A DNA stretch of 21,386 bases from Candidatus Thorarchaeota archaeon (lineage in GTDB: Archaea > Asgardarchaeota > Thorarchaeia > Thorarchaeales > Thorarchaeaceae): NCBI GenBank assembly GCA_046758445.1, contig JBHIAE010000050.1:1-21386 (forward strand). Direction: 5' to 3'. Both the position numbers and the translations under genes were made by a program. Under the pieces are notes generated by a model, which was not told where the DNA came from, searched no databases, and worked only from the letters and a program-made list of their open reading frames with translations. The stretch's first letter is position 1; each line of letters begins with the position of its first letter. This document shows positions 5,742 through 20,803 of this stretch, one piece after another.

Positions 5742-5857
5742 AAAGAAAGAGTGAGGGAGAGAGGACGAGCCTCCATCAAGTCTAGAAGATGAATCTACAG
5801 ATGCTCCTTTTGCCTGTAGTGCAGATACTCAGGTCCGAAGATTTGCCTGACCAAGAA
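5742..5857 (-). repeat. Cassette-boundary element: gene-3'-end copy (FLVRQIFGPEYLHYRQKEHL*) plus hairpin/pyrimidine tail
   Basis: 5857->5795 translates as FLVRQIFGPEYLHYRQKEHL-TAG. The hairpin region 5742-5772 is nearly identical to 16220-16251. Confidence 0.85.
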
Positions 5858-5877
5858 AGGCACCAAGCAGAAACTAG

Positions 5878-6336
5878 ATGAGGCAGCTACCCATACGGAA
5901 CACAGAGATGTCGACTTTGACAGAGAAACAGTGTGATGCATGTGGAAGGCCACAGGGTGGTTACTTCTGTGTCAGGTGCAAGAGAGAGAGCTGCGAGGAC
6001 TGCTGGAGTTCGGAGTGGGAGCTCTGTGTCGACTGTGCGTCCTACAAGAACGGCGTACGTTGGGACATCAAACAGAACCTAATGAACGCTGGTAGGGCCG
6101 CAGAGTTTGCATCAGCCAAGATGGAGAGTGATTGTTCTCTCTGCCCCATTCTCCGTGATCAGCTGCTATACAATCTCAAGACGGCGAAGAACCTGGCGTT
6201 CGCTGCCCGGCAGGAAGGACTGCTGGAGGAGGAGGAGAATGCGTCTAGGCTTCGACAGGAGCTTACAGAGGTGTCAATCGAGGTGCTTGTGCGGCAAGGC
6301 CTCCAAGCGAATGGAGACCTGTGGCGGCATTTGTAG
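5878..6336 (+). CDS. Hypothetical Cys-rich (zinc-finger) protein; likely start at 5908
   Basis: Five CxxC motifs (CDAC, CVRC, CEDC, CVDC, CSLC) followed by a helical C-terminus. Confidence 0.7.
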   Translation: MRQLPIRNTEMSTLTEKQCDACGRPQGGYFCVRCKRESCEDCWSSEWELCVDCASYKNGVRWDIKQNLMNAGRAAEFASAKMESDCSLCPILRDQLLYNLKTAKNLAFAARQEGLLEEEENASRLRQELTEVSIEVLVRQGLQANGDLWRHL

Positions 6337-6370
6337 AGTCCTTAACTCGTGTTTCTTCCCTTAGCACCAG

Positions 6371-6447
6371 CGAGAGGACTTGAAGCCTCCCATAGCTTGG
6401 TGACGACTCTGCATAGGCTACTGAGGTCGGTGGGACTGATACATGAT
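6371..6447 (-). repeat. Degenerate copy of the boundary element
   Basis: GAGAGGACTTGAAGCCTCCCAT resembles the hairpin at 5759 (GAGAGGACGAGCCTCCAT). It is followed by CTCTGCATAGGCTACTGAGGTCGG, which resembles the consensus CTCTTGCATGTACGGCAGATACTCAGGTCCG with gaps. Confidence 0.4.
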
Positions 6448-6457
6448 GTATCTTGGT

Positions 6458-6844
6458 TCACTGTTGAGTCGCGAATTCCTGGGGTCGCTTCAGCAATAGT
6501 CCGAGAATTGCCACATTGAGTACTAGCAGCACAACGAACATGATGACCATGGGCATGGTCCCTAGCTGAATGTAGTAACCCGGACTCGCTATGAGAGAAT
6601 AGAAAAGAGCACCCTGTGAAAAGATAAAGAGCCTTGTGCCCCATGCTCGTCTTGTGATGAGTGCCCACCCACCAATCGCAAGAAGCAGCCCCGTGGCTAT
6701 TTCAGTGAGAATATGCGCCATTATCCGATAGGGCTCAGATGCCAGCTCGGGCACCTGACCAGTCGAGAGAAGCATCATCCACAAGCCAATCATTGAGATT
6801 CCTACAAGGATGGAGTATACTGAGGCGTTCTTTGAAACTGTCAT
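6458..6844 (-). CDS. Hypothetical 4-TM membrane protein
   Basis: 128 aa ORF with four hydrophobic helices. Confidence 0.75.
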   Translation of the reverse strand: MTVSKNASVYSILVGISMIGLWMMLLSTGQVPELASEPYRIMAHILTEIATGLLLAIGGWALITRRAWGTRLFIFSQGALFYSLIASPGYYIQLGTMPMVIMFVVLLVLNVAILGLLLKRPQEFATQQ

Positions 6845-6940
6845 GTTAGTCCGTTCATAAAGTGTATCTTCTGAGGAAACAAGCAGAAACCACCAACATA
6901 AGCACGGTCCGGATTCTATGATTCACGCTGAAAAGAAAGA

Positions 6941-7584
6941 GTGGAGGGAACGCTATACGTGCGGTCCCAATCGAGGACCAGAATTGTTGACGTCACAGAG
7001 AACAGCGAATTCGAGGTATATCTTCAAAGATGCCTAGTAGGTCCACCATCCAGACGTTACAGGAAGAGGATATCATACTTGATAGAAGCGATCCCGAAGG
7101 GCTTCCGCAAGAAGATTCTCATCTTCGATAGAACAGCTATCGGGACAATCGAGTATTCACCTTCAGAAGTCTCCTATTATCCCATCGTTGGTGACAGTGT
7201 GACCGTGATGAATTGTATCTGGGTGTTAAGAAAAGCAAAGGGCCACGATTTCGGGAGTATGCTGGTACAGGACATGATAGAGAGTGAAAGAGAAGCTGAT
7301 GGCTTCGCCATCATTGCCTTGGAGGGACACTGGAGTCTATGGTTCAAGAAGGAGCAGATGGAAAGACTTGGGTTCAAATCATTGGAATCAATACCTGTGA
7401 AACACAAGACAAAGACAGGGATTGTGTCTTCAAGATTCATCTCATGTGGATGCCAATAGTGGAAGATGCCCAGCAACCGTCATGGAATCTGCAGAATCTG
7501 TTGGAAGGCATAACAGCATGCATTGCACACCCACTGTATCATCCACAGACCCACACGTCGAGGCACATATTTGAGAAACAATAA
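6941..7584 (+). pseudogene. GNAT-family (YoaP-like) acetyltransferase with a frameshift near 7410-7416
   Basis: GTIEYSP, MNCIWVLRKAKGHDFGSMLV (acetyl-CoA motif A) and ERLGFK are in the 6941-7459 frame. The plausible continuation (RDCVFKIHLMWMP...CIAHPLYHP) is in the 7339-7584 frame. Confidence 0.75.
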
Positions 7585-7777
7585 GCTTGGAAATGGATGT
7601 TCCTTTTAGTATCTCAAGGCACATAACGATGAGGAGTTGACTTCTATCATTGATCAATAGCTAATCTCTAGGCCATATTTCAAGAATAGATGAAGACGTG
7701 AAGACACGACAGATTATAGGCCAACAACAAGCATAAAGCGCAAATATGTGGGTGACGTAATGGGAGTGGGTGGTCCC

Positions 7778-8011
7778 ATGGGCACAAATGAGGTGGATAA
7801 ACGAGGCCGAGTCACAATCCCAAAGGAGTTGCGTGAGAAGGCTGACCTTAAGCCCGGAGACCGTGTGCGTATCACAGCCAGTAAGGACAGTGTGACAATA
7901 GAGAAAGTGATAGACCTAGGCACATTCATAGAAGAGCTAAGAGGATGCATCACGATCGAGGGTGATCTTGAGCCCCTACAGTTGAAAGAGATATGGAGAA
8001 CCGGGCCTTGA
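7778..8011 (+). CDS. vapB: AbrB/MazE/SpoVT-family antitoxin (VapB-type)
   Basis: VDKRGRVTIPKELREKADLKPGDRV is the AbrB swapped-hairpin signature. The gene overlaps a downstream PIN gene. Confidence 0.88.
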   Translation: MGTNEVDKRGRVTIPKELREKADLKPGDRVRITASKDSVTIEKVIDLGTFIEELRGCITIEGDLEPLQLKEIWRTGP

Positions 8012-8412
8012 TTCTGATTGACACTGACATTTGGGCATACTATTTCGATAGCACTCTCCCGGAGCACACGCGGGTCATTAAGCCGCTAGAAGCTGCTCTT
8101 CGAAAGAAACAAGCTGCCGTCAACGCCACAGTCGTCGTCGAAACTCTTCATTATCTCATTAAGCGTTTAGGTCCCCTTGCTGGAGGCGGCAAGGCAACCG
8201 TCTTTATGAAATACGGAATTCCTCTGTATGCTTTAGATACTGAAACTCTTGATCTTACAAGGCAAAAACTGTGCGAATTCACACATATAGGGATAGGGGG
8301 CCGCGATGCATCAATACTGGCTACGATGGAAAAAGAAGACATCAATAGAATAATGACCCATGACCAGGCCTTCAAACGTATAGCGAATATCCAGGTAATT
8401 GATCCTGTGTAG
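7993..8412 (+). CDS. vapC: PIN-domain (VapC) toxin; likely start TTG at 8008 overlapping the antitoxin stop
   Basis: ILIDTDIW, VVETL, RDASILA and MTHDQAF carry the conserved acidic PIN residues. Confidence 0.9.
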   Translation: MENRALILIDTDIWAYYFDSTLPEHTRVIKPLEAALRKKQAAVNATVVVETLHYLIKRLGPLAGGGKATVFMKYGIPLYALDTETLDLTRQKLCEFTHIGIGGRDASILATMEKEDINRIMTHDQAFKRIANIQVIDPV

Positions 8413-8625
8413 ATGATTAGTTGAACAGCTGGTGGGACAGATACAACGAAGCATCAGAGCAAGTAGTACTATAGTGTGGAGGAGGTGTGAACTTCCTTTT
8501 ACTTCACAGTTCACTGAGAATCTTACGCGCAGGGATGAAGGAGAGATGGCATCCATCACAAGCTAATTGCCAACACTCCAGTCAATATCCATCTCGCGTG
8601 AACTGACCAAATCTTGAGGCAAGTC

Positions 8626-8925
8626 TCAAGACCTCAGTATCTCGAAGAATATCCTCAACGCGAGATCAATAAACTCGTCATCATCGCCAAAATAGCCTGG
8701 GAAGATAATCTGATAGGTCATCAAGAGTCCGACGATTCTCTGAATCCTCTCTGAGTTTTCTGCCAGTTTGCCTATATCTACTTCTCCAGACTCAGCTGCC
8801 TTCATCATAGCTTCAGACAATATGCCCATGGCCTGCTGCAATCCATCAGTGCTCTGATACTTTGTGACGAAGTCCATATACTCGCTTGGATCATCTAGCA
8901 TCTCGCTCTGGATAGCTGAGAGAAA
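8626..8925 (-). pseudogene. 5'-truncated helical protein fragment (possibly a TetR-like C-terminal domain)
   Basis: 91 aa protein-like helical ORF. The frame stays open upstream to about 8943. It lies head-to-head with 8926+ with only 24 bp between annotated starts. Confidence 0.4.
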
Positions 8926-9459
8926 ATGCCAATCGATAGGAGCTCATCAAAAGATATCGAAGCCCTGAAGACGATTGATTGGAAGATTCTGAAGTCACTC
9001 CAATCAGATGGACGTAAGACATTAAGTGCTATTGCATTAGATGTTGGTGCATCGGTGCCAACCGTCCGAAAACGACTGACTTTAATGAGAAAACACAACC
9101 TAATCCATGAAACCATCCAGGTAAATCCCGCAGCAACAGAGCGACAGTTTGTTGTAATGTTTGCGATGAGGAGTTCCGTCATTGTTGAGATGGACTATTT
9201 TGAATTGGAGAAGATGTTTCGAGAGAAGTTTGGCGAGAACTATTGGATTAGCTTCAGGATGGCGAACAGTCCAGAACTCATGCTCACACTTGTCGTTGAC
9301 TCATCAAAGCAAGTCGTTCCCCTTCGGTCTGGACTATTGTCAATGTTCAAGGGAACTGAGGTTACTAATCAAATGATTGTCCCGGAATGGATGTATTTCC
9401 CTGATTTCAGAGATGTGATGATTGATGAACATCTATCGCAGCTGACACCTTCGGTTTAG
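8926..9459 (+). CDS. Lrp/AsnC-family winged-HTH regulator (possibly the C-terminal half of a two-HTH protein)
   Basis: IDWKILKSLQSDGRKTLSAIALDVGASVPTVRKRL is an AsnC HTH signature. There is no room for a promoter upstream. Confidence 0.8.
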   Translation: MPIDRSSSKDIEALKTIDWKILKSLQSDGRKTLSAIALDVGASVPTVRKRLTLMRKHNLIHETIQVNPAATERQFVVMFAMRSSVIVEMDYFELEKMFREKFGENYWISFRMANSPELMLTLVVDSSKQVVPLRSGLLSMFKGTEVTNQMIVPEWMYFPDFRDVMIDEHLSQLTPSV

Positions 9460-9530
9460 GGCACGTCTCTGACCTACTGTACGCTAATCTCGCACAAAGT
9501 GTCTGTGTGCAGCCCTCGTTCTGAAACCAC

Positions 9531-10400
9531 TTAGCTCGTTCTAACGGTCAAGAATCTGAAGAATTTCCTCAAGTCTTTCAGTCGAACATTGAGTGCGGGA
9601 ACCTTCTCTCTGTACTCCTGATAGCCCTCGCCGAACCTTTCTATCAGTTCGATTTCTTCTCTCCTTATTTGGACTCTGAAAAGAAGGTAGAGGATCACAC
9701 AGAGTAGAATCGAATAGACTGAGAATCTGAAGAACATCCCTGCGGTTCCTACAAGTACCCCTCCCATGTACGCGGGGTGTCGAGTGACAGAGTATATCTC
9801 ATGTTCCTGCAGCTCTGATTCTTCTGGAAAGTAGAGATACACCACAGTCATGTAGTCAATGCCAAAGGTCACAAACGAACTTCGAGCAACAAGTAACCCA
9901 AGTACCAGTAAGATTCCCGAAAGGACCACACGTATTCCAACATCAATACTCGTAGTCACTCCTAGAAAGGATAGGAGTGACCTTGAGAATAGGATTGTCA
10001 AGTCGTTGACTGGAGGGGCTGGCGGCAGTGAGCGAACTGAAGTGAAGATATGGAGTACATTTGGAAAAACAAGAGCGATTCCTATCATCCCTCTTGGAAT
10101 CATCATCTGATATGAGAGATCTCCGAACTCTGACTTCATGTAGTCTCTTCTACTCCAAATGGTTCCTATCAACCACAAAGCAATGCTTGCCAGGAGTAGA
10201 CTGCCAAGTAGAGGTAACACTGGTTCAAGCATGACAAGGGCGGAAATGTCTGGAAACACGCGTGGTAGAATATCGAGGACAATAAGGAAGATGTATCCCA
10301 GTAGTGCGATCACTAAGGCCCTCAATGGTATAATGAAAATCTTTCTTCCTGGATATGCTGGAAGCTTCTCTCGGAGCTTCTCTACTCCTTTCAGTTTCAT
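9531..10400 (-). CDS. Isoprenylcysteine carboxylmethyltransferase / PEMT-family membrane methyltransferase
   Basis: Multi-TM protein with IYSVTRHPAY and RREEIELIERFGEGYQEYREKVP motifs. Confidence 0.85.
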   Translation of the reverse strand: MKLKGVEKLREKLPAYPGRKIFIIPLRALVIALLGYIFLIVLDILPRVFPDISALVMLEPVLPLLGSLLLASIALWLIGTIWSRRDYMKSEFGDLSYQMMIPRGMIGIALVFPNVLHIFTSVRSLPPAPPVNDLTILFSRSLLSFLGVTTSIDVGIRVVLSGILLVLGLLVARSSFVTFGIDYMTVVYLYFPEESELQEHEIYSVTRHPAYMGGVLVGTAGMFFRFSVYSILLCVILYLLFRVQIRREEIELIERFGEGYQEYREKVPALNVRLKDLRKFFRFLTVRTS

Positions 10401-10455
10401 AAGGAATCTGAAACCGATTCCGACTAATCAGTCTGTTCGTGGAATAGATAGAGTG

Positions 10456-10563
10456 CGAGAGGAGATTTGCTCTCTCTTGATTTGAAGACCAAAGCGGCCT
10501 CTGTTACTATTGCCTGTACGGCAGCTAGTCGGGTCCAAACATACCTCGTGCCATGACAATCAA
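10456..10563 (-). repeat. Cassette-boundary element (LIVMARGMFGPD*LPYRQ**QR) plus hairpin
   Basis: 10563->10498 is collinear with the consensus but has three nonsense substitutions. Hairpin GAGAGGAG...CTCTCTC at 10457-10477. Confidence 0.88.
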
Positions 10564-10856
10564 TCAGCTTGTTGATGGTTTACGATCTCTATTGTCAGGA
10601 GAACTTCGTCTACCTCTCTCCGAGATAGAATCGCTCTGATGGCATCAAGCTGGTCCTGGCTTCGTATGATGACGCCTATCTTGTTCATAGGATTTCCGCT
10701 TTGCCCAATCGGGTTTATCTCAACGGCAAGATAGGCTGGTTCGTTCTTTGATCGAGGTATCTTTCTGATGAATACTCCAGGTTCATCAGTCCTTAACCGT
10801 TCAAACTTCCTCCCGTGCCTGAGCATATCTCTCAACGATTCTTCCATTCCATTCAC
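10560..10856 (-). CDS. Hypothetical protein (98 aa)
   Basis: Protein-like ORF (PGVFIRKIP, LAVEINP). Its TGA overlaps the edge of the boundary element. Confidence 0.7.
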   Translation of the reverse strand: MNGMEESLRDMLRHGRKFERLRTDEPGVFIRKIPRSKNEPAYLAVEINPIGQSGNPMNKIGVIIRSQDQLDAIRAILSRREVDEVLLTIEIVNHQQAD

Positions 10857-11026
10857 TCAGTCAGCCTGAGTCGGTGTCTTGATAAACTAAGCTACATCCT
10901 GATTTTTGCTTGGATACGTTTGCTGCGTTCGTTTCTCATGGACCAGCGGGAAATGATGAGGTCCGACAAGTCAGCAGATAGATATCATCTGGAAGGTATT
11001 GAGAATCATTCTGTGTAGGAGGATTT

Positions 11027-11413
11027 GTGGTAGTAGTGAAATTGGAACCAATGATCTATACAGTAAATCTTGAGGAATCGATTAGATTCTATCGTGATAC
11101 TCTAGGGTTTGAGATTGAGGAATACTATCCCGACAATGAGAAACCCACTTGGGTCTGCTTTCGTATTGGGAATGACCGTTTTGCTATTGGAAAGACATTC
11201 TCAGACATCCACCACAAGTTGCATCCAAGAGGAGTCGATGGTTCAGGAGTACAGTTCTATATCAGAGTCGACGACGTGGATAGGCTGTATAATGAGTTCA
11301 AGAATGAATTAGAGATCATAGATGATATCGAGAACAAGAATTGGGGTGACAGGGAATTCACATTCAAAGACCCAAATGGATACCTAATCTCCTTCTTTTC
11401 AAGGCTACAATGA
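11027..11413 (+). CDS. VOC (glyoxalase/bleomycin-resistance) family protein
   Basis: NLEESIRFYRDTLGF, FYIRVDDVD and WGDREFTFKDPNGY motifs. GGAGG lies just upstream of the GTG start. Confidence 0.92.
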   Translation: MVVVKLEPMIYTVNLEESIRFYRDTLGFEIEEYYPDNEKPTWVCFRIGNDRFAIGKTFSDIHHKLHPRGVDGSGVQFYIRVDDVDRLYNEFKNELEIIDDIENKNWGDREFTFKDPNGYLISFFSRLQ

Positions 11414-11454
11414 ATTTGCCTATCCATTCACAAGTGTGAAGGATGAAAGAACGA

Positions 11455-11558
11455 AGAGAGAAAGGAGCACAAGAAACTCCTTCTCTCCTTGAAGATTACA
11501 TCTGCTTCTCTTGCATGTACGGCAGATAGTCAGGTCCGAGCATCTCGCGTGCCATGAA
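11455..11558 (-). repeat. Cassette-boundary element (FMAREMLGPDYLPYMQEKQM*) plus hairpin
   Basis: 11555->11496 reads ATG GCA CGC GAG ATG CTC GGA CCT GAC TAT CTG CCG TAC ATG CAA GAG AAG CAG ATG TAA. Stem GAGAGAAAGGAG/CTCCTTCTCTC at about 11456-11487. Confidence 0.92.
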
Positions 11559-11582
11559 AGACTTCTCTCGTTGATATTTGAT

Positions 11583-11645
11583 TTGTAAAGACCTAATCAG
11601 AAGTGAAGTTTATATAGATTGTAAACGTACTTGTAGACAGTAAAC
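11583..11645 (+). promoter_or_regulatory. Archaeal BRE/TATA promoter of the RHH-PIN operon with repeated TTGTA(A/G)AC boxes
   Basis: Purine-rich GAAGTGAAG, then TTTATATA (11609-11616). Boxes TTGTAAAG 11583, TTGTAAAC 11619, TTGTAGAC 11631 and AGTAAAC 11639. Confidence 0.6.
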
Positions 11646-11652
11646 ATTACTG

Positions 11653-12400: not shown

Positions 12401-12414
12401 TTCCTGTAACCCAA

Positions 12415-12444
12415 TTATCTCACATGCATTGTGAAGACAATCAG
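12415..12444 (-). pseudogene. Remnant of a DUF4258 gene 5' end
   Basis: 12444->12415 reads (L)IVFTMHVR*, versus MIIFTKHAL of 21040-. It has the same overlap with the DUF2283 stop codon. Confidence 0.65.
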
Positions 12445-12982: not shown

Positions 12983-15900
12983 TCAACTACGTCTTCGTTT
13001 GGAATAACAGACTCCGAGAACTAGTGCCACTGCGAAAATGCTGCCAATTATGATGCTCCCGAGTAGGAAGTCTGGAATTGGGGGCGGTGTGGGCGTGGTA
13101 GTAGGAGTGGTAGGAAGTTCGACGGTGATGCTTTCCACGTTGCTCCAGTCGCTGCGTTCCATGCCTTCATCTTGAGCTATCACTGCGAAGTAGTAGGTTC
13201 CTGAGCCTAAGTCGGAGATATCTACTTCGATGTTAGTGCTGCCTGTTGTCCATGTTCTGAGTGAGTTGTCCATGGTCACGGTGTCGAACACTTCGAGAGT
13301 GTATTCGACTGCTGTGCCTTCGGGATCAGTGCTGACGCTCCACGAAACAGTGAAGATGCCATCATCGTCAGTGTCGCCGGGGTCGTTGAGCCTCGATGTG
13401 GTCGGTGGCTGATTGGCGACGGCAATGAATTCGATATTGCTCCATGGGCTGGGAACACCATCATTGTCAAAACCCCGTACTCTGAAGTAATAGGTGATTC
13501 CAATGAGATTGCTGACGAGTTGAATGGTACCCGAGGGAGTCCACTCCTGAAGAATAGTGGCAAAGCCATTGGAGTCACTCATTTGAAGATGGTAATGGTC
13601 GATTACGCCGTCGAAATCAAAGGCGGCACTCCAAGAAACGTTGAAAGTACCATCTCCTTCAGGATCTTGAGGTGCACTCAGTGTTGGGGCAAGGGGCTGT
13701 TCATTGTACCAATATGTAATGTCAACTTGATAGAGATGTGGACTGCGGTCATCATATTCAGTGGAAAAGAGGACTCGCCACCGCAAGTCGGACCCTCGAT
13801 AAGCAAACTCGTGCATAATCCTAGGCGTCACGGGTTCCCAGTGTGCTCCGCCATCAGCAGATAGTTGCCAAGTAAGGCTCGTATTGCTAGGCTCATAAGC
13901 GCTAAAGGTCAATGTAGCATTCTCGATCAGACTCGTTGTGCTATCGAATTCGAGAGATTGAGCTCCTACCTTCGTTACATTATAGGTAGCCCCAGCGCTG
14001 CGGAAGAGTCGAAAGATGAACATCGAGGTTGCATTAGATACGTAAAGGAAGTCTCCATGGACTGTTGCCATTGCTGCAAGTATTGGAGGGGTCGTATAAG
14101 AGGTGATAAGCTGGGGGTTTCGAGGATTGGTAGCATTAAGGAGATGAATCCCACCGAGTGCTTCAGTAACTATAGCATAGGGACCAAAAACCGCTATGCT
14201 TGCTGAAACATTGACACCAGGAAAATCGTAGAACGAAAACTGAGAAACAGCGAAAGGATTAGTAACATTCTGAAGAGAGATACCTCTATCGCCCTCAGCA
14301 AGGATGCAGACATCTCCATCAACAGTGACATCAGACAGCCAGGGTGATTTGGTGGTCTGATTAGTGAGGACAAGGCTACTGAGGTTTGTGGCATCATAGA
14401 GATAGAATCCATAGTCGAAGGGCGGTGATGTTTGCATACCTGTAGCATAAACGACGTGCCCTTGGACTGCAACATTGCCAAAACTAATCCCACCCGTAAC
14501 GTTGGAAATCTGTCCGCCCAAATTGGTAGGAATGGATACATTGATGATTTGGAGGCCATCATTCCCTGCAGCAAGGTAGGCCAGATCTCCAATGACGACT
14601 AAATCATTGATGGTGATCATCGGATAATAGTCGAGGAACTGAATGTCACTAGGATTGGTGACGTTGAAGGAAAGAAGCCCTTGTGTGAGTGAACCGCCAT
14701 CATCTGCAACAAAGCAATAGTGCCCCTGAATCTCAACGGAATCGTAATCAACAGGGCTCGTGTGATTGATTTGATTTAGAAGTACGGGATTAGCAGGGTC
14801 ACTAACGTTGAGAGTCAGGAGTCCATCAATGCCTGCTGCAACGTAGGCGATGTCCCCCTGCACCTCTATATCTAGAATCATATTCCCTGGAAAGGTCCCA
14901 ATCAGAGGGAGATTGGTCAACCCACCGCTACTCGCACCAATCCGATAGATCTCAAGACCTGCATCTGTCGCAATTACCAGATCGCCGTTGTAAAAGGCCA
15001 AGTCATTCACCGAGGTTGTCATCAATGAGAAATCATCAACGTATGTAGGATGCATCGGATCTGCAACATCTAGGATTACTACGGTTCCACTGTCATCACC
15101 TAGGAAGAGAGTGTGTCCCTGCGAGGCAAGACATTGAAGATTGTTGGTGTGACTATAGTACCCTTTGAGCTTGGGGTTGGCGGGATCGCTAATGTCGATT
15201 AGTTGAATCACGGACCAGGAGATGTAAAAGGCAATGTCACCATCGACATGAAGGCGATAGGAGGTGCCAAGTGCTGTGATACTGCTCACGACTGAGGGTG
15301 AAGAGGGGTTAGAGACATTGACAACATAGAAGCCGTTGTTGGCGGACAAGTAAGCCATGTCACCAATGACATTGATGTCATTCACTGTTGAAGGGAGAGA
15401 AGTGTTAGAAACAGAGAAGATATTGTAGGGGTCTTCAACATTCACTATGCGTAAGATATCACACGCTCCGTATAGAAACCGACCCTGCACAGCGATATTA
15501 GGCCTGTTACCACCGAAATTGGGTCGAGAGTCAGTGATTGTGGGTGTGGCACTAGGATTGCTGACATTGTACAATCGAAGGTCACCATAACGAGCAACTG
15601 TATACAGAATATCTCCTTCCACCTTAGCATCGTAGATATTTGACCAGCTCCAATCCCATGCAATGAATTGCGTGACTTGGTATGGATTGGTCAGATTTGC
15701 GATACGCAGAACTTGCTCAATCGGAGAGGCGCTTTGAGTAGCAATGTAAGCCTTACGACCTTGAATATCAATAGCCTGAACCCCCTCTGATACCAGATAC
15801 CGATCAAGTCGGGCAATGGCGTAATCACGCTGGCTCGTGACGGTGCCCGTTCCCCAACCACTTGCATTGGTATTACTGACATCCTGATAAGAAGTCGACA

Positions 15901-16108
15901 GGAAGTTCTCTGTCCTCCAACTTTGTCCTGAAAGAACTGCAACTTCGCTGAAACTCGTATCTACTGGTCGTGACATATGACTAGGGATTTGAAAGCATAT
16001 GAGAAGGACAATTAGAACTGCAAAACCCAGAAAACTCCTTGATCTCGACAACATCAAGCTCTCCCCTGTGGCAACGAATGTAATTGAGGAGCTTAAGGCT
16101 GTCAACAT
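12983..16108 (-). CDS. Large secreted, membrane-anchored surface protein: LVIVD-repeat beta-propellers + 2 fibronectin type III domains; likely start at 16054
   Basis: Signal-like N-terminus and many V-x-G-D-x-A-Y-(V/L)-A...G-L-x-I-x-(D/N)-V-S-(D/N)-P repeats. FN3 motifs FNVSW...YYFRVRG and FTVSW...YYFAVIA. PT-rich linker, TM helix and KRRRS tail. Confidence 0.9.
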   Translation of the reverse strand: MLTALSSSITFVATGESLMLSRSRSFLGFAVLIVLLICFQIPSHMSRPVDTSFSEVAVLSGQSWRTENFLSTSYQDVSNTNASGWGTGTVTSQRDYAIARLDRYLVSEGVQAIDIQGRKAYIATQSASPIEQVLRIANLTNPYQVTQFIAWDWSWSNIYDAKVEGDILYTVARYGDLRLYNVSNPSATPTITDSRPNFGGNRPNIAVQGRFLYGACDILRIVNVEDPYNIFSVSNTSLPSTVNDINVIGDMAYLSANNGFYVVNVSNPSSPSVVSSITALGTSYRLHVDGDIAFYISWSVIQLIDISDPANPKLKGYYSHTNNLQCLASQGHTLFLGDDSGTVVILDVADPMHPTYVDDFSLMTTSVNDLAFYNGDLVIATDAGLEIYRIGASSGGLTNLPLIGTFPGNMILDIEVQGDIAYVAAGIDGLLTLNVSDPANPVLLNQINHTSPVDYDSVEIQGHYCFVADDGGSLTQGLLSFNVTNPSDIQFLDYYPMITINDLVVIGDLAYLAAGNDGLQIINVSIPTNLGGQISNVTGGISFGNVAVQGHVVYATGMQTSPPFDYGFYLYDATNLSSLVLTNQTTKSPWLSDVTVDGDVCILAEGDRGISLQNVTNPFAVSQFSFYDFPGVNVSASIAVFGPYAIVTEALGGIHLLNATNPRNPQLITSYTTPPILAAMATVHGDFLYVSNATSMFIFRLFRSAGATYNVTKVGAQSLEFDSTTSLIENATLTFSAYEPSNTSLTWQLSADGGAHWEPVTPRIMHEFAYRGSDLRWRVLFSTEYDDRSPHLYQVDITYWYNEQPLAPTLSAPQDPEGDGTFNVSWSAAFDFDGVIDHYHLQMSDSNGFATILQEWTPSGTIQLVSNLIGITYYFRVRGFDNDGVPSPWSNIEFIAVANQPPTTSRLNDPGDTDDDGIFTVSWSVSTDPEGTAVEYTLEVFDTVTMDNSLRTWTTGSTNIEVDISDLGSGTYYFAVIAQDEGMERSDWSNVESITVELPTTPTTTPTPPPIPDFLLGSIIIGSIFAVALVLGVCYSKRRRS

Positions 16109-16219
16109 CAGATTGGTGTAACACGATGAACTTAGCTTTCGTGCACCATGCCTTATACTATTGATTCCTAAGTTTATTAATCCACATCATCGTGGCCAAT
16201 CTAATTCAAGATTAGACAC

Positions 16220-16286
16220 AAAGGAAAAGTGAGGGAGAGAGGGCGAGCCTCTCTCATTGTAGTTTAAGGATTACATCTGCCTCTCT
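16220..16286 (-). repeat. Partial boundary element (ERQM* plus well-formed hairpin/pyrimidine tail)
   Basis: TTACATCTGCCTCTCT at 16271-16286. Stem GAGAGAGG/CCTCTCTC at 16235-16255. Minus-strand tail CCTCACTTTTCCTTT. Confidence 0.8.
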
Positions 16287-16328
16287 AGATGCATAGTTGA
16301 ACTATGCCAAGAGTGATTGGCCAACCCG

Positions 16329-16370
16329 CTTAATGTGCCTACATGGCAACGAGTACACGCATAGTCAGAT
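16329..16370 (-). repeat. Degenerate boundary element
   Basis: CTTAATGTGCCTACAT resembles CTTAATGTGAGCCTACAT (12827-12844). GTACACGCATAGTCAG resembles GTACGGCAGATAGTCAG. Confidence 0.5.
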
Positions 16371-16515
16371 ACATACCCATTTCTCAAAGGAATGATTGAG
16401 GAAACGAAGATTTCTCCCTAGGAGCAACCTATGAGAATCATGCAGATGTTGGTATGTTTCTGTCCGGGAAAATGGTGTTACAAACTGGGAAATTGAGCGT
16501 CCGGTCAACGCCGTA

Positions 16516-17766
16516 TCAGTTCGGTTCATCCTGTACAGAAGCTATGTCATCACCGGACGGCGAGCTATGCAGTCCAACGAAGACCAATAGTGGAACCACG
16601 AGGAGCATCATAGAGGCCACTGTGAATGCAAAGATATAGCTGTGACCACCTAGCGCAAGAAGCAGTCCTAGGCATAAAGGTCCTGACGAGTGTCCAATAT
16701 CCATTACTGTACTGAGAAGTCCGAGGGCAGTTCCCTTCATAGAGGGGTCTACGCTCTCCGTCACCAAAGGGGCCGTAGTCGAGTCAGTGGCCGCAATCGC
16801 GATGCCAATCGGAATGATGAGCACGGTCTGCAAGAGCATGTTAGGCACTGTCGAAGCTAGAATAATCAGAAGACAGAGGGAACCCAGGCCACCGACAGTG
16901 AAGGGTACCCGACCGCTAATATCAGATGCCCTGCCTATTATCGGGCTCGTGATAAGCAAAGTGACCATGAGTAGGGTGAAGAATGGTCCTGCCACCCATT
17001 CTGGTACACCCACGACCTCTTTCCAGAAGAGGGGCATGAAAAACTCATAGGCACCGTACAAGAAGAATGTGGCAGCCTGAGCAGCACAGATGAGCAAGAT
17101 ATCACGTTTCAGCACATCCTTCAAAGAAACGTGACTCATGTTTTCACGTGCTGAGTCAGGTTCTCTTGGTGCATTCTCTGCGCCCATGGGCAGCAATAGA
17201 GTCATTACAAGAACACCCATCCCAAACAAACCACAGAGAAGGTACACGCCTCGGTACACATCTACACCATACGACTCAAACAGCGGGACGGCAAGAAGGA
17301 AACCTCCCACGAGTGGTGCGGCCATTCGACCCACTCGTGTAGAGGATGAATAAAGAGCCATCCGCTCACCCCTTCTGGCTCCGTACCATCCTGCCACAAC
17401 AGCTAGTGCCACTGGACCAAGGATTGCAGTGGCGAGTCCATGTATGAACCGCACGATGAGAAGCTGAACAGGAGTGATCACGAAGAAGTAGAGAAGAGGC
17501 ACAAAAGCGAATAGAACGGCAGCTATCCAAAGCGGTGTTCTCGGCCCCCTGCGGTCCATCAGCACTCCAACCGGTGCACTAACCAGTATGCCAGTGGCAG
17601 GAGATGCAGCTCCTATGAATCCCATCTCTTGGTCTGTGGCTCCGAGGCTAGAGGCGAAGTATGGTAGAACCGGTGATTTGGCCATTGTTGTGCTAAGAAT
17701 CGCGAGGGCACCTAGAATGCACAATAGCAGCATTTTCCGGCCTACACGAGTATGATCCTGACTCAT
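16516..17766 (-). CDS. Major facilitator superfamily transporter
   Basis: 416 aa with about 12 TM helices. Motif A GVLMDRRGPR and GRASDISGR, plus RFIHGL. Confidence 0.92.
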   Translation of the reverse strand: MSQDHTRVGRKMLLLCILGALAILSTTMAKSPVLPYFASSLGATDQEMGFIGAASPATGILVSAPVGVLMDRRGPRTPLWIAAVLFAFVPLLYFFVITPVQLLIVRFIHGLATAILGPVALAVVAGWYGARRGERMALYSSSTRVGRMAAPLVGGFLLAVPLFESYGVDVYRGVYLLCGLFGMGVLVMTLLLPMGAENAPREPDSARENMSHVSLKDVLKRDILLICAAQAATFFLYGAYEFFMPLFWKEVVGVPEWVAGPFFTLLMVTLLITSPIIGRASDISGRVPFTVGGLGSLCLLIILASTVPNMLLQTVLIIPIGIAIAATDSTTAPLVTESVDPSMKGTALGLLSTVMDIGHSSGPLCLGLLLALGGHSYIFAFTVASMMLLVVPLLVFVGLHSSPSGDDIASVQDEPN

Positions 17767-18305
17767 TTCATGGATCCGACCTGGATAGATTCTGGAAGAC
17801 GTTTCCTAAGCTCAGCAAACAGAAGTCGAAACGCCTCTTGGCGCGTCATCTGCTCTGTCTTGTTCTTGAGCTCCTGGCGAAGCCGCCTAAGGAGCAACCC
17901 AGCATAAAGGGAGTCACATACAACGAAGCCACGAGCAATCGCCTGTTGATCGTCATCACTGACGTAGGCTAGGCCACTCAGGATGAGTTCAGTACCGCGA
18001 GCATCTGGTGATTCATCGATGTCTTTCACAACATCAGCGCCATGGATAATACGCGCCATGTCATCCAGTGCGGGATCCCGAAGCTTGTAATGGTCGATTA
18101 GTACCTCGAAGGTGCATTTGCCCTCATGATGGGTGAATGGAATCTCCATATTTGGGAAGTCAAAGGGCGTACCATCTGTACTCGTCAGAGTGTGCCCAGG
18201 CCACATGACGAACTTGAAGACCGCCTTTGGATCAATGAACCGGCGAATGAGCCATGGACAAGCCACCCGGTCCACGTGCACATGATCACGAGTCACCCAT
18301 TTCAT
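17763..18305 (-). CDS. Chromate-resistance ChrB-family (C-terminal/ChrF-type) domain protein
   Basis: MKWVTRDHVHVDRVACPWLIRRFIDPKAVF, PFD, FTHHEGKCTFE and IIHGAD. ATGA overlap with the MFS gene. Confidence 0.88.
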   Translation of the reverse strand: MKWVTRDHVHVDRVACPWLIRRFIDPKAVFKFVMWPGHTLTSTDGTPFDFPNMEIPFTHHEGKCTFEVLIDHYKLRDPALDDMARIIHGADVVKDIDESPDARGTELILSGLAYVSDDDQQAIARGFVVCDSLYAGLLLRRLRQELKNKTEQMTRQEAFRLLFAELRKRLPESIQVGSMK

Positions 18306-18525
18306 GATTAACACTGCTACGGGTCACAGAAGCACTCCCGCTTAAGGTTGTCGCGGAAGAAGAATCATCTCATCGGATGCAGGGGGAATCCATTGCAAGG
18401 TTGAGGCTCTTTGATTTACCTATGAAATTGGAGAATGATTCACCAAAGCAGGTCTCATATGTCGCCCACTTCGATCGTTCTCTCATCTCACATACAGAGG
18501 TACTTGGTTTAACAGAAAACAATAT

Positions 18526-18783
18526 TCACTCTTTCACCCTCTTCAATCTGACCTTGCCTCCCTTGCTTTCAATAATGCCTTCGCCCACAAGCCCACGAAT
18601 CGCGGCAATAGCAAGACTTCGTTTTTGGTCCACTAATCCTCCTTCATCGACGAGTAACTCACGGACTATATCTTCCCGAAACCGCCACCCGCCGCCATCC
18701 AAAATCCTGAGAATCTCCTTCTTGGTGTTTTCTTTCCAGGTGACTCTCTCTTCGAATGTCAGTTTCCGTTTCCGTCCTTTCAT
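18526..18783 (-). CDS. Small basic hypothetical protein, possible winged-helix
   Basis: 85 aa. EILRIL...IVREL...AIRGLVGEGIIESKGGKVRL is a wHTH-like pattern. Confidence 0.55.
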   Translation of the reverse strand: MKGRKRKLTFEERVTWKENTKKEILRILDGGGWRFREDIVRELLVDEGGLVDQKRSLAIAAIRGLVGEGIIESKGGKVRLKRVKE

Positions 18784-18838
18784 TCTCTTTCCAGCACACT
18801 CGCTTTCGTATGAGCTCAGAACGGTTAATATGGGCTGC

Positions 18839-18906
18839 CATCTTCTCCTGCCTGTAAGGCAGATAGTCTATTACAGCTGTCTTATGTGCCTGCGTGCCAT
18901 TACAAT
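18839..18906 (-). repeat. Cassette-boundary element with replaced core (IVMAR...DYLPYRQEK-M)
   Basis: 18906->18892 = ATT GTA ATG GCA CGC. 18868->18839 = GAC TAT CTG CCT TAC AGG CAG GAG AAG ATG. The central 15 nt are replaced by 23 unrelated nt. Confidence 0.85.
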
Positions 18907-18931
18907 ACTATCCTATATTGGAGTAGGTCTA

Positions 18932-19255
18932 ATGGATTTTCCCGACGATTTGAGGTTTGCAGAGGAGTCTTTGAAACAGGCGGAGAAGGAATTCCTGGCT
19001 GGAAATGATGGAATCGCTGAAGCACTTCTAGTAAGACTGTCTACGGGAACTTTCTCTTCTGATGCCAAAACAGCACGAGAACGGATGGAGAATCTGGACG
19101 AGTTTCGTTATGTAAAATGGCATCGATGGGAGAAGAAATATGAATTCTCAGCGTCATCTGGAAGGACGAGGGATATCCTAGCATTGATACCACCACACTT
19201 CAGGCTAGTAGTCCCTACTGGTACTCAAAAAGAACAGGAATTACAACATTCGTAA
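18932..19255 (+). CDS. Hypothetical protein (true start probably ATG 18932 within ORF 18377-19255)
   Basis: GGAGTAGGT precedes the ATG. The downstream part is protein-like, while the upstream extension overlaps other features. Confidence 0.55.
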   Translation: MDFPDDLRFAEESLKQAEKEFLAGNDGIAEALLVRLSTGTFSSDAKTARERMENLDEFRYVKWHRWEKKYEFSASSGRTRDILALIPPHFRLVVPTGTQKEQELQHS

Positions 19256-19804
19256 AGGATCTAATGATTCATCGAAGTCTATTGGCACCTACTGTTGATG
19301 GCGAGCAAAAAGGATCTCCGACCTCTATAGGCAAACCATCAAACAGATGGTTGCTTGATTTTGTTGTTCTTTCCAGTCTGCGTCTCTCTTTCAAGAATCA
19401 TTGGGAGAAATTGGTACGAGATATCGTGATGAAGCGGCCCCAGACCAGCTTATACTTGTAGCTGAACGACTAGGTCTGACAATCCCGGAAACTCTTGATA
19501 TCGCCCGTAAGATCAGGGACATAGATGGCCGGGTGGTTGAGCGTGACGTGAGCGATTCCAAGAAGAATCTGACGTATTTGTGTAGAAAACCTGATTCCAG
19601 TCTGACCCCTCTAGTAGACATAAACGAGTGAAGCGAATCAACTTACAGAATCAAGTTTAGGGTGCCTATCTAAGAGTCCAGATTCCGTTCCTCAACATCA
19701 TCTCACACCCTACATCCACTGAGATTTGAGATAGTTTCGTCTGTTTGTTGAATTCATAGTTGAGACATGTTGAAAGGCAGTGGCCAGTTTGACTAGGTGT
19801 TAAG

Positions 19805-20020
19805 ATGGTCGTTACATCAAGTGAGAAAACAAGAAACGTTGGTGATGGCTTGGCCAAAAACAAGTTCTCCAGAGACCTGGATAGACTATTGAATAAGCTT
19901 CAACCAACATCAGACGCAGAAACTGCGGATCAACTTACAAGAATCCGTTATCGCTTGGTTGATTTGAACCGAAAGCGACTTGTCAAGATCAACCACAGTG
20001 TGATGCAGGTGCTCTGTGCA
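19805..20020 (+). pseudogene. 3'-truncated fragment of a hypothetical archaeal protein
   Basis: KFSRDLDRLLNKL...RLVKINHSVMQVLCA, after which it runs into the antisense of the AsnC fragment. Confidence 0.5.
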
Positions 20021-20176
20021 GAATTCAATGACCCCTGAATCTAACAGCTTCTGAACCCGTTTCTTAATCGCATTCATCGAAACATTATACTTCTTAGCTA
20101 CTGCTTGGTAAGACTGTCTACAATTCTGAAGTAGATCCATTATAATCATCTTATCAAGCTGGTCCAAATGACTCAC
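20021..20176 (-). pseudogene. N-terminal AsnC/Lrp HTH fragment, 3'-truncated
   Basis: LDQLDKMIIMDLLQNCRQSYQAVAKKYNVSMNAIKKRVQKLLDSGVIEF. Beyond about 20020 the ORF is the antisense of 19805+. Confidence 0.7.
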
Positions 20177-20243
20177 CGGTTCTGTTAGTGAATAGATGCG
20201 GGGTGCTATGTTGTATAGTTATGCAATTGAATGTATTCCAAGA

Positions 20244-20621
20244 CTAAAACATCCCATTCTCGTTCGGCGAGTCTTCCAGAATGGCTTGATTGATGTCCCA
20301 CATCTCTACGATGCGTGAGTCTACAAATCTGGAAATATGCATGAGTGCAAATCCAGGATGGTCTGGATTTTGTTTGACATGTGAATATGTTGTGACAAGG
20401 TCCCCATCTTCCAGAAACATCTTTACCTCTACCTGCTTTTCAGGATTCGCTCTGGCATCCTCCTCTATAGCCAATATCAATGACTCACGGTCACCTTTGA
20501 AATGCTGGTTGTGATGTATCAAATCTCTACTCGTGTGCTCATCAAACCATCTTCGAAACTCTCTAGATTCTACAAGATCGAAGAATGACAACGCAATCTC
20601 ACGGTTTGAGCCTTTGTTCAT
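20244..20621 (-). CDS. SnoaL-like / NTF2-family (ester cyclase-like) protein
   Basis: HHNQHFKGDRESL, LEDGDLVTTYSHV and RFVDSRIVEMWD. GAGGAG lies upstream of the ATG at 20621. Confidence 0.85.
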   Translation of the reverse strand: MNKGSNREIALSFFDLVESREFRRWFDEHTSRDLIHHNQHFKGDRESLILAIEEDARANPEKQVEVKMFLEDGDLVTTYSHVKQNPDHPGFALMHISRFVDSRIVEMWDINQAILEDSPNENGMF

Positions 20622-20685
20622 TTGAACTCCTCTTCCTGTGCTGCGTAGAGAAAACACTACTTACTCAAAAGGATTGGGAAATAAA

Positions 20686-20800
20686 GGAGGAGGAAAGGGG
20701 TGCAATATGCACACTCATTCCTACTGGTTGACTACATCTGTTTCTCTTTCCTGTATGGCAGATACTCGGGTCCGAAGATTTCTCGCGCTATGACAATCAA
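20686..20800 (-). repeat. Cassette-boundary element (LIVIAREIFGPEYLPYRKEKQM*) plus hairpin
   Basis: 20800->20732 is a 23-codon uninterrupted copy ending in TAG. Stem GTGCA/TGCAC around 20700-20712, with a minus-strand pyrimidine tail. Confidence 0.92.
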
Positions 20801-20803
20801 GTT

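Follow-up and report, generated by a model that had tools for sequence, protein, structure and literature searches.

A probable array of gene cassettes attached to the tail of an acyl-CoA dehydrogenase gene in Thorarchaeota

Here we describe a repeat of about 65 bases in a 21,386-nucleotide stretch of DNA that forms a whole contig of a Thorarchaeota MAG (the window), which equals the last 20 codons, the stop codon and the terminator hairpin of an acyl-CoA dehydrogenase (ACAD) gene and which we read, with a probability of roughly 60%, as the site at which the cassettes of an array attach to the 3' end of that gene. The site is the tail of the gene, arrays lie 3' of the intact gene, cassette junctions fall within a core of the repeat, and cassettes are common to several genomes and reordered between them. 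We found no published description of a gene-tail cassette array.

An initial annotation, made from the letters of the window, had placed six copies of the repeat there, and a repeat search together with an nhmmer profile made from the copies themselves located all six at those positions and in one orientation, with E values of 1e-17 to 2e-20 for the five fuller copies; its minus-strand peptides likewise match the translations of the copies at 5.8k, 10.5k, 11.5k, 12.8k and 20.7k. The minus-strand copy closest to the contig end, i.e. on the gene-proximal side, lies at 20733..20805 (VIAREIFGPEYLPYRKEKQM and a stop; E = 5e-19) and is followed outward by a disrupted copy at 18841..18868 (minus strand; E = 7e-4), in which ATGGCACGC is retained, unrelated bases stand in place of the core's left arm and spacer, and GACTATCTGCCTTACAGGCAGGAGAAG comes after. 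The same broken copy is found again in another Thorarchaeota genome (L064:8207-8234) within a homologous cassette that shares its flanks on both sides and has 85% identity to that of the window across 1122 nt. A seventh, vestigial boundary on the minus strand (16219..16290, or ~16256-16290), missing from the initial list and read directly, holds only the tail GAGAGGCAGATGTAA and the hairpin GAGAGAGGCTCGCCCTCTCTC of repeat family D5. Further out on the minus strand are the copies at 12826..12898 (VMGREIFGPDYLP, stop, M, stop; E = 6e-17), with a deletion 3' of the core and a D5 hairpin at 12787-12824, at 11497..11568 (FMAREMLGPDYLPYMQEKQM and a stop; E = 2e-20), with a folded hairpin at ~11456-11487, at 10497..10568 (internal stops, VMARGMFGPD-stop-LPYRQ-stop-stop-Q; E = 1e-18), with a hairpin at 10457-10476, and at 5796..5869 (FLVRQIFGPEYLHYRQKEHL and a stop; E = 1e-17), with a D5 hairpin at 5741-5778, the last being the most divergent copy and the most distant from the gene. 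In addition, nhmmer found two more copies elsewhere in this genome, one on contig C51 (4562-4625) and one on contig C86 (6624-6670).

The claim that the repeat is a protein C-terminus complete with its stop has been borne out, as its register is identical to the end of an intact ACAD of 414 amino acids, encoded in the same genome on another contig (L001:4561-5805, minus strand; G000 contig C51), with the Pfam domains Acyl-CoA_dh_N, _M and _1 and a C-terminus ending in HVQLIVMGRELFGPDYLPYRQEKQT and a stop; the full-length source gene that the annotation presupposed is thereby found. The excess of third-position changes that it had noted is also significant: the first 39 nt of the five fuller window copies differ 22, 15 and 63 times at codon positions 1, 2 and 3, and in a formal codon test (54 remnants, about 35 related loci) mean pairwise diversity was 0.211, 0.153 and 0.460 at these positions (position 3 versus positions 1 and 2, Mann-Whitney p = 9.5e-8). 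Relative to the genic consensus, the 54 remnants carry 366 synonymous, 205 non-synonymous and 14 stop differences, the possible single-base changes of these three kinds standing at 34:135:11. In 36 of the 54 the frame still runs through 20 sense codons and closes with a stop at the shared position; 34 of the 54 have an in-frame stop no more than 11 codons upstream, and thus these 34 are not the tails of longer ORFs. A hairpin 3' of the stop is present in 22/24 genic copies and 29/54 remnants, compared with 21/390 shuffles. This terminator-like module of stop, hairpin and T/C-rich stretch, kept in about half of the remnants, might suggest that the repeats have a function of their own (small RNA, terminator module or micro-peptide gene) and that their likeness to the ACAD tail is incidental; such an explanation is scarcely plausible, given that the repeat has no Rfam match, that frame or stop is lost in 18/54 remnants, that a stop lies a few codons upstream of most of the 54, that the register is that of the intact gene's true end, and that remnants are found only downstream of the ACAD gene.

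The copies also differ from what purely local events would leave behind. Homology to ACAD starts sharply ~63 nt before the stop in every remnant with no gene body upstream, the DNA between copies is unrelated and intact cargo, the same cargo occurs in other genomes in another order and with other neighbours, and the four non-truncated window copies are nearer to the gene ends of other species (76-87%) than to that of their own genome (59-71%), as the initial annotation had anticipated. An origin without any mobile units, whether the gene end was multiplied locally (segmental duplication, unequal crossing-over) or the copies are decayed remains of paralogous ACAD pseudogenes, is therefore very improbable. 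In favour of such an origin, private variants recur among the copies of a single genome (PEC in L030, for example, or GNE in L049), and thus some local duplication or gene conversion has taken place. The proposal that all copies were once translated 3' ends of one gene is largely supported, whereas their derivation from different lineages is suggested rather than proven, given these shared variants.

The cargo between the copies, as seen from Pfam matches and ORFs, is diverse. A cassette cut by the contig end (20806..21386) holds a DUF2283 gene (21037-21267, minus) and a 78-aa ORF (20804-21040, minus), and the next (18869..20732) a SnoaL-like gene (20244-20657, minus); the inner part of this region (18512-20020) has 80-85% identity to L064:7190-8563 by blastn. 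The cassette at 16291..18840 carries a ChrB_C gene (17763-18314, minus) and an MFS transporter gene (16516-17766, minus) and is separated by the vestigial boundary from that at 12899..16218, with the gene of a 1041-aa LVIVD-repeat surface protein (12983-16108, minus). Beyond these lie a cassette at 11569..12825 with a PIN-domain gene (11876-12400, plus) and a DUF2283 gene (12441-12668, minus), a single-gene cassette of the glyoxalase/bleomycin-resistance family (10569..11496; gene 11027-11413, plus), and a multi-gene block (5870..10496) that may represent several fused cassettes and encodes, besides ORFs of 152, 128 (with many hydrophobic residues) and 172 aa, a PIN protein (7993-8412, plus), an AsnC-type HTH protein (8926-9459, plus) and a PEMT/ICMT methyltransferase (9531-10400, minus).

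The same cassette array is present in most of the Thorarchaeota (Asgard archaea) examined, in many of which remnants in one orientation lie directly 3' of the ACAD ortholog. The layout expected by the initial annotation, in which tails pushed outward lie behind an intact gene, occurs unbroken on single contigs of relatives, among them G005:C14 (at least 9 remnants), G018:C26 and SMTZ1-45. The core pattern was present in 53 of 86 family genomes, with up to 16 matches per genome, and a reversed-core control pattern gave 0 matches in the same search; no remnants were seen beside the ~50%-identical ACAD orthologs of Thermoplasmata, Anaerolineae and Scalindua. Several cassettes are common to different genomes in varied order, such as Y-Z-X-W in G005 versus X-Y in G015.

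Cassette junctions map to the core GGACCTGACTATCTGCC, which lies within a 22-bp pseudo-palindrome, AGATATTC-GGACCT-GACTATCT. For instance, the copy at L021:7307 has the left half of the G005 X|W copy and the right half and hairpin of the G005 V|Y copy; four to five independent junctions switch within GGACCTGACTATCTGCC, and one or two switch 3' of the stop codon, outside the core. The symmetry of the pseudo-palindrome (8/11 pairs; chance ~0.05 by our own estimate, with position allowed for) appears to exceed chance only marginally.

We propose that a unit of 1 to 6 kb would consist of a right half-site (the last ~8 codons, the stop and the terminator hairpin), cargo, and a left half-site (~10 codons), and would recombine with the tail of ACAD itself inside GGACCTGACTATCTGCC. 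With the exchange placed there, the incoming cassette would provide ACAD only with its last ~8 codons, stop and hairpin, and the reading frame would be kept because the cassette brings a new tail and terminator. The left half-site would come to lie at the far end of the cassette, and the old tail, fused to it, would move outward as an untranslated remnant, so that each remnant would be a chimera, its left half coming from a cassette and its right half having once belonged to the gene. Repeated insertion would let the array grow, and later exchange between copies could excise, reorder or fuse cassettes. The earlier idea that an incoming module replaces the 3' end of the gene and pushes the old one outward thus holds, its extent being narrowed to the last ~8 codons, stop and hairpin. 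How a cargo gene gains its two half-sites is a point for which the model gives no account, and we count this against it.

As to what drives the insertions, the first cassette of seven genomes or contigs (G000, which is the window's own genome, L030, L054, L104, L042, L170 and L159) carries a two-motif LAGLIDADG endonuclease gene, in all seven convergent with and directly 3' of the ACAD stop and in 4/7 accompanied by a HerA-like ATPase; complete endonuclease and HerA cassettes with a repeat copy on both sides are found in L170 and L159. The structure model of the endonuclease (pLDDT 92) matches I-DmoI, I-SceI and PI-SceI, both catalytic Asp residues are invariant across 22 homologs, and the protein has extra HTH domains. 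More distant members of the family are flanked by duplicated ends of other genes, most clearly in L141 (236-nt duplicates of a gene's 5' end, 92% identity) and similarly in L124 and L142. Our preferred, unproven candidate for the driver, to which we give slightly less than even odds, is this cassette-borne endonuclease, often together with the ATPase. It would cut the 22-bp core, host homologous recombination would copy half-site-flanked cassettes into the break, and cassettes lacking the gene would be non-autonomous passengers. If true, the array would correspond to the "mobile ORF" (mORF) endonuclease elements of fungal mitochondria, in a serial form that carries cargo. Endonuclease-bearing genomes, including that of the window, however, retain remnants with a consensus core, which counts against this driver, as a cutting enzyme should attack them; in addition, the window has no endonuclease gene, and no homolog was detectable in the array-bearing G005 and G002 (assemblies 81-87% complete).

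Alternatively, and in our view rather unlikely, the cassettes could be moved in trans by a conventional site-specific recombinase encoded elsewhere, via circular intermediates in the manner of integron cassettes or Xer-exploiting elements, with the LAGLIDADG/HerA cassette being a passenger or a selfish endonuclease that uses a multi-copy target. The core resembles a recombinase site, with 8-bp inverted arms, a 6-bp spacer and exchange mapped there, and this 8-6-8 arrangement together with single cassettes in different order between genomes is the expected product of a tyrosine recombinase acting on circular intermediates; arrays also persist in genomes without a detectable endonuclease, and service in trans has a precedent in integrons, in which integrase-less cassette clusters are common (PMC9668308). 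Against it, no tyrosine or serine recombinase (PF00589, PF00239) was found on the array contigs of five genomes searched and no recombinase among the array ORFs scanned against Pfam, PF00589 occurred in 4/17 genomes of the genus and PF00239 in 0/4 tested, these assemblies being incomplete and the negatives thus no proof of absence, and none of 35 metagenome contigs showed an excised circle. Nor would a recombinase give a reason why, in the ACAD-linked subfamily, each of the seven intact endonuclease genes lies in the first cassette. As regards the recombinases searched, the units can be called integrase-less, but the LAGLIDADG cassette provides a candidate mobility module.

A classical integron, or an attC cluster without its integrase, is an explanation to which we give almost no weight, even though small cassettes with one-orientation repeats at their borders invite it and a study reports an enrichment of integrons in Asgard archaea, among them a few Thorarchaeaceae MAGs in which 2 attC sites but no IntI were seen (PMC9668308). 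Both GTTRRRY and RYYYAAC are missing from the repeat consensus, whichever strand is read, and the window copies, folded as single strands, do no better than shuffled sequences (z -0.26 to +0.02), and we thus rejected an attC identity of the site; the site is moreover the tail of a coding gene and not an attI beside intI, cargo genes point in both orientations, an IntI-type recombinase is absent, and the repeat motif does not occur in the supplement of that study. The likeness to integrons (PMC9668308) lies in the one-way array of small cassettes of mostly one to a few genes, the recurring boundary site, the expected arrival of new cassettes beside the anchor, and accessory cargo that is shared and reordered. 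Unlike integrons, the site has no R'/R'' boxes or significant hairpin fold, each cassette brings its own hairpin module, and the array is anchored in a housekeeping-type gene, at a coding 3' end that each insertion would rebuild.

Among known systems the preferred driver is closest to the mORF elements of fungal mitochondria (atp6 of Allomyces macrogynus; atp6, atp9, cox2 and nad3 of Glomus), in which a conserved gene has at its 3' end a free-standing endonuclease gene (LAGLIDADG or GIY-YIG) that comes with a replacement C-terminal segment in frame, the native C-terminus being duplicated downstream with mostly synonymous differences (PMC3630166). In a similar way, the LAGLIDADG gene here lies directly 3' of the ACAD stop, between two tail copies. 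In contrast to mORF elements, the host is an archaeal chromosome and not an organelle, insertion is serial and leaves as many as 14-16 remnants, the endonuclease is missing from most units, which carry ordinary cargo, the exchange point falls within the duplicated segment, so that the unit ends in a left half-site, and the endonuclease, with extra HTH domains and often a HerA-like ATPase partner, is convergent rather than fused in frame, its cleavage being predicted.

Integration at the 3' ends of protein genes is also familiar from the guaA and trmE islands. Integrative islands that accrete in tandem at the 3' ends of tRNA or protein genes are exemplified by the tycheposon islands of Prochlorococcus (bioRxiv 10.1101/2020.12.28.424599). 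As in those, the element bears a copy of the target 3' end and restores the gene, newcomers displace older elements outward, and the island is dotted with incomplete copies of the target and with degenerate cargo units that lack an integrase. Unlike those, which have element-borne tyrosine or serine integrases, none was found here, the units are far smaller and many more per site, and homology reaches ~30 nt to the left of the exchange point. A further parallel is the intronless homing of free-standing endonuclease genes (seg, mob) in T4-like phages, where an intergenic endonuclease gene cuts a nearby conserved gene in genomes without it, break repair co-converts the flanks, and its own allele is protected by silent substitutions; it is not known to involve target duplication or a cassette array. 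By comparison, the sequences of the endonuclease-linked gene tails here give a hint of such silent-change protection.

A combination of repeat and profile searches delineated a unit of about 65-75 nt that occurs six times in the window. The window is an entire contig (C50, 21,386 bp) from an assembly of 3.25 Mb and 93% completeness. All six copies share one orientation and lie on the minus strand, at 5796-5869, 10497-10568, 11497-11568, 12826-12898, 18841-18868 (a disrupted copy) and 20733-20805, while a vestigial seventh boundary on the same strand, at about 16219-16290, retains just the hairpin and the final five codons, of which four are sense codons and one is the stop. Translation of the copies gave the minus-strand peptides that the initial annotation had read from them, and most are followed 3' of the stop by a short G/A-rich hairpin and then a T/C-rich stretch. 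Neither tRNA genes nor Rfam matches were found in the window, which rules out the repeat being a known RNA or an att site of the tRNA type. When the whole assembly was searched for the motif in six frames, two further copies emerged, one of which forms the true 3' end of a long ORF on its contig C51 (L001:4561-5805, minus strand). This gene encodes a 414-aa acyl-CoA dehydrogenase (ACAD) with Pfam matches to Acyl-CoA_dh_N, Acyl-CoA_dh_M and Acyl-CoA_dh_1 (E = 6e-31, 4e-13 and 1e-27), it terminates in ...HVQLIVMGRELFGPDYLPYRQEKQT and a stop, and its orthologs in Thorarchaeota are 80-96% identical. The last domain stops at residue 400 of 414 and the repeat, which comprises the last 20 codons, the stop and a terminator hairpin, is the true C-terminus. 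Thus, the full-length protein ending in this peptide, which the proposal of a repeated gene end called for, is encoded in the same genome. The C-termini of PEMT/ICMT proteins (...FG.EY..Y...) resemble the repeat peptide, and one such gene is present in the window at 9531-10400; this family was dropped as the source after the exact full-length match to ACAD.

The initial annotation had also placed the variation between copies largely at third codon positions, and a formal test bore this out. We compared 24 copies still attached to an intact ACAD gene (genic copies, 21 of which entered the codon-position test) with 54 full-length copies displaced between cassettes (remnants), drawn from some 35 non-redundant loci of Thorarchaeota. 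At codon positions 1, 2 and 3, the mean pairwise diversity was 0.157, 0.061 and 0.523 in the genic copies and 0.211, 0.153 and 0.460 in the remnants, with p = 9.5e-8 for position 3 against positions 1 and 2 in the 54 remnants. Relative to the genic consensus, the remnants carry 366 synonymous changes, 205 non-synonymous changes and 14 stops, where the possible single-base changes fall into the same classes at 34:135:11. The 20 sense codons and the stop are in register in 36 of the 54 remnants, and 34 of the 54 have an upstream stop within 11 codons; the remnants are therefore not the tails of other proteins.

When the ACAD protein was searched against 31 related genomes, the relatives showed the ortholog followed on the same strand by short downstream matches to residues ~390-413 only. 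Single contigs show this layout unambiguously. On contig C14 of the relative G005, ACAD (2133-3374) is followed by at least nine more copies that reach 17.7 kb; five copies were seen on a single contig of G018 (C26), eight in SMTZ1-45, three to six on single contigs of many others and at least 14 on one metagenome contig. The orthologs of about 50% identity in Thermoplasmata, Anaerolineae and Scalindua are without such copies. A degenerate pattern of the repeat's core matched 53 of 86 genomes of the family and 13 of 16 genera, with up to 16 matches per genome, and the reversed pattern, used as a control, gave none. A scan of viral contigs for the site returned no match, and none of 35 site-carrying metagenome contigs is circular. 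Many Thorarchaeota contigs stop some 20-530 bases from the ACAD stop codon, as would fit assemblies broken by repeats; no ORF leaves the right end of the window toward the open-ended ATPase ORF with which C51 begins.

Between the copies lie intact accessory genes in both orientations. In the window, Pfam assigns them as two PIN and two DUF2283 genes, genes for an AsnC-HTH regulator, a PEMT/ICMT protein, a glyoxalase and an LVIVD surface protein, and MFS, ChrB_C and SnoaL genes. These cassettes recur across genomes beside different neighbours: window positions 18512-20020 match a cassette at another locus (L064) at 80-85% identity, the same broken copy included, and the order is Y-Z-X-W in G005 and X-Y in a second relative, G015. 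In the copy that separates X from Y in G015, the left half carries silent variants linked to X, and the right half, the stop and the hairpin carry variants linked to Y, as judged against the G005 copies between X and W and between V and Y. Pairs of copies sharing a left or a right part place the switch point inside GGACCTGACTATCTGCC in four to five independent junctions and just 3' of the stop in one or two. The junction positions thus define the unit as right half, stop and hairpin, then cargo, then left half. A cassette entering beside the gene would accordingly bring it a new stop and hairpin along with its last ~8 codons, and the old tail would be displaced. As such, the earlier suggestion that each module brings a replacement 3' end and pushes the previous one outward is supported by the junction mapping, with the correction that a remnant is a chimera of two histories.

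The four non-truncated remnants of the window share 76-87% identity with gene ends from other species, and the window's remnants share only 59-71% with the gene end in their own genome, which at the level of sequence similarity is in keeping with a foreign supply of the tails. In addition, private variants are common to copies of one genome, so that local duplication or conversion also contributes. A Mantel comparison of gene-body and tail distances gave r = 0.40 (p = 0.0015) for the left half and r = 0.18 (p = 0.07-0.10, below significance) for the core and right half, a pattern that fits tail replacement in segments that are very short, too short for proof. Taken as a whole, we consider it about 90% probable that the array reflects a gene-tail attachment site at which cassettes are inserted serially and the tail is rebuilt.

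Clustering of the array ORFs revealed one recurrent family directly 3' of the ACAD stop, namely proteins of about 600-1070 aa with two LAGLIDADG motifs. The genes of its closest members, which are 36-56% identical to the copy on C51, lie 2 to ~100 nt past the ACAD stop at L030, L054, L104, L042, L170 and L159, as does that copy itself, always in the first cassette and convergent with ACAD; the window itself is without such a gene. The gene occupies L001:2345-4558 (plus strand) on C51, and a shorter version occupies L030:11346-13166 (minus strand). On C51 and at L054 the endonuclease gene and a HerA-like ATPase gene adjoin ACAD as a pair, and at L170 and L159 this two-gene cassette is complete between a genic copy and a remnant. 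Duplicated tails flank the endonuclease gene at 11181/13280 in L030, 2368/7438 in L170 and 7548/2005 in L159. For the conserved 490-aa part, AlphaFold predicted (pLDDT 92) a monomeric LAGLIDADG endonuclease fold with extra helical regions at both ends, for which Foldseek listed PI-SceI, I-DmoI, I-SceI and WhiA as best structural matches. The Asp of both motifs is invariant in 22 homologs, unlike in WhiA, which is not known to have them. The family was found in 36 of 86 genomes, and distant members lie between duplicated gene ends at other genes (L141, L124 and L142). The partner ATPase on C51 (L001:13-2235) has weak, sub-threshold matches to HerA, to the defence-associated mad8 and to CedD, the ATPase that translocates DNA in the crenarchaeal DNA-exchange system.

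As a pseudo-palindrome of 22 bp, the consensus core, AGATATTCGGACCTGACTATCT, has the size and shape typical of LAGLIDADG targets, and it has the gene-linked variants ...GACTACTTGCC and ...GAATGCTTGCC. With regard to the idea that silent changes might make endonuclease-linked alleles immune, gene tails beside an endonuclease are all at least 5 of 24 positions off the consensus core; however, tails without one show 0 to 8 differences from it. Repeat codon 11 (the Tyr in ...GP[DE]YLPY..., in the right arm of the core) varies between Y, C, N and F in the genic copies. Together with codon 3 (Ala/Gly) and the last codon (Met), it is the only one with marked non-synonymous variation among intact genes, and its variation may represent escape from a sequence-specific enzyme.

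We speculate that the LAGLIDADG endonuclease, with the HerA-like ATPase, would cut a housekeeping-type gene at the 22-bp site within its tail, and that host recombination would then copy in any DNA bounded by both half-sites. A selfish endonuclease cassette would thereby mobilise dozens of unrelated cargo cassettes between species, among them toxin-antitoxin, transporter, regulator and surface-protein genes, and related endonucleases would act likewise at the ends of other genes. This candidate driver has, in our estimate, not quite an even chance. It is favoured by its physical association with the site, seen in seven genomes or contigs and each time in the first cassette, by the intact catalytic residues and by the analogous target duplications around its relatives. 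However, arrays also occur in genomes without a detectable copy, and consensus cores persist in genomes that carry the endonuclease. Moreover, the core resembles an 8-6-8 recombinase site, and circular intermediates offer the simplest account of how single cassettes came to be reordered; both points would suit a recombinase encoded elsewhere that moves the cassettes in trans. We regard such a recombinase as the less probable driver, and rather unlikely, since no tyrosine or serine recombinase was found on the array contigs of the five genomes searched, a result that in turn favours the endonuclease. PF00589 had no match on C50, C51, C86 (a third contig of the genome), C14 of G005 or C26 and C22 of G018, and it was detected in only 4 of 17 genomes of the genus, which are incomplete; likewise, Pfam scans of the array ORFs yielded no tyrosine or serine integrase. 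An endonuclease-driven, integron-like platform for gene capture that operates in Thorarchaeota without a recombinase is a tentative proposal, somewhat doubtful as a whole.

A true integron cluster was rejected on several grounds. PF00589, the domain of IntI-type integrases, had no match on the array contigs searched, the repeat consensus is without the R'' (RYYYAAC) and R' (GTTRRRY) boxes of attC on either strand, and both strands carry cargo in the window and on C14 of G005, in contrast to the co-oriented, promoterless cassettes of integrons, which are read from Pc. The window copies folded as single strands no better than shuffles (z-scores -0.26 to +0.02). A survey of archaeal integrons reported a few Thorarchaeaceae with 2 attC sites each (Ghaly et al., PMC9668308), and the repeat motif is absent from its supplement. 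The arrays are similar to integrase-mediated islands at gene 3' ends in that the insertions sit between direct repeats of the ACAD 3' end and leave the gene restored, but differ from them in that no element-encoded tyrosine or serine integrase was found. They also resemble endonuclease-based mobile ORFs, as a free-standing homing-endonuclease gene with a predicted endonuclease fold and intact catalytic residues is present at the end of its target gene, flanked by the duplicated gene terminus, of which the proximal copy is in frame with the gene. In fungal mitochondria, the endonuclease ORF of such elements arrives with a foreign C-terminus that differs mostly by synonymous changes, and the native C-terminus stays behind downstream (PMC3630166); by analogy, the Thorarchaeota layout would be the pattern of these elements.

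Full-text literature searches on Asgard mobile elements, homing endonucleases, archaeal integrons and Thorarchaeota with ACAD or islands did not turn up the array. We place it with two known kinds, islands seated in the 3' end of a gene and mobile ORFs that encode an endonuclease, with a real chance that it is a new recombinase-free cassette system. If the reading holds, the arrays would be a means of gaining genes that is used across a family of Asgard archaea, the relatives of eukaryotes, about whose gene exchange, to our knowledge, little is known. Accessory genes would be gathered in ordered arrays behind one metabolic gene without a recognisable integrase, and a homing endonuclease, usually viewed as purely selfish, would underpin an integron-like system of cargo cassettes. 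The remnants could serve as markers for finding, counting and dating cassette gains, and the 22-bp core and its candidate endonuclease form a directly testable pair that might become a tool.

Several further observations concern the surroundings. At L141 (G089:C61, 7716-11704), a distant LAGLIDADG member (9344-11140, minus strand) lies between an orphan 95-aa 5' fragment and a full 530-aa copy of a gene whose N-terminal sequence looks like the pyruvate-carboxylase-B/oxaloacetate-decarboxylase type; the 236-nt copies of its 5' end are 92% identical, and the layout thus indicates that the family also targets gene 5' ends. In the genome of the window, a second, distant LAGLIDADG-HTH protein of 1277 aa is encoded after a 1037-aa ORF (C1:123645-130588, minus strand), directly upstream of hutU, which has an apparent frameshift; an obvious repeat array is absent there. 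Positions 12425-12724 and 21021-21320 of the window form a 300-nt direct repeat (82% identity) that spans two minus-strand DUF2283 genes in different cassettes (12441-12668 and 21037-21267), the latter followed by a 78-aa ORF (20804-21040). The DUF2283 gene and this ORF may be a toxin-antitoxin-like pair that occurs twice, and the repeat, being near the contig end, may explain the assembly break. Just past the last copy, overlapping plus-strand ORFs in different frames at 4358-5419, with beta-propeller-like repeats (...TDADGNxxW...), look like one frameshifted or decayed repeat-protein gene, and on C14 of G005 the first cassette is taken up by a related SBBP-repeat protein. Positions 1-588 encode the C-terminal part of a secreted or surface protein, with a run of 14 threonines and then a hydrophobic stretch, which is ordinary for an archaeal surface protein. 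Lastly, contig C86 holds a partial copy with the core and right half only (L002:6624-6670), ending in ...QT and a stop, a rare variant seen elsewhere only in the intact gene of the same genome. Because this copy adjoins housekeeping-looking genes (by sequence glycosyltransferase-like and phosphoglucosamine-mutase-like), it may be the outer end of the array.
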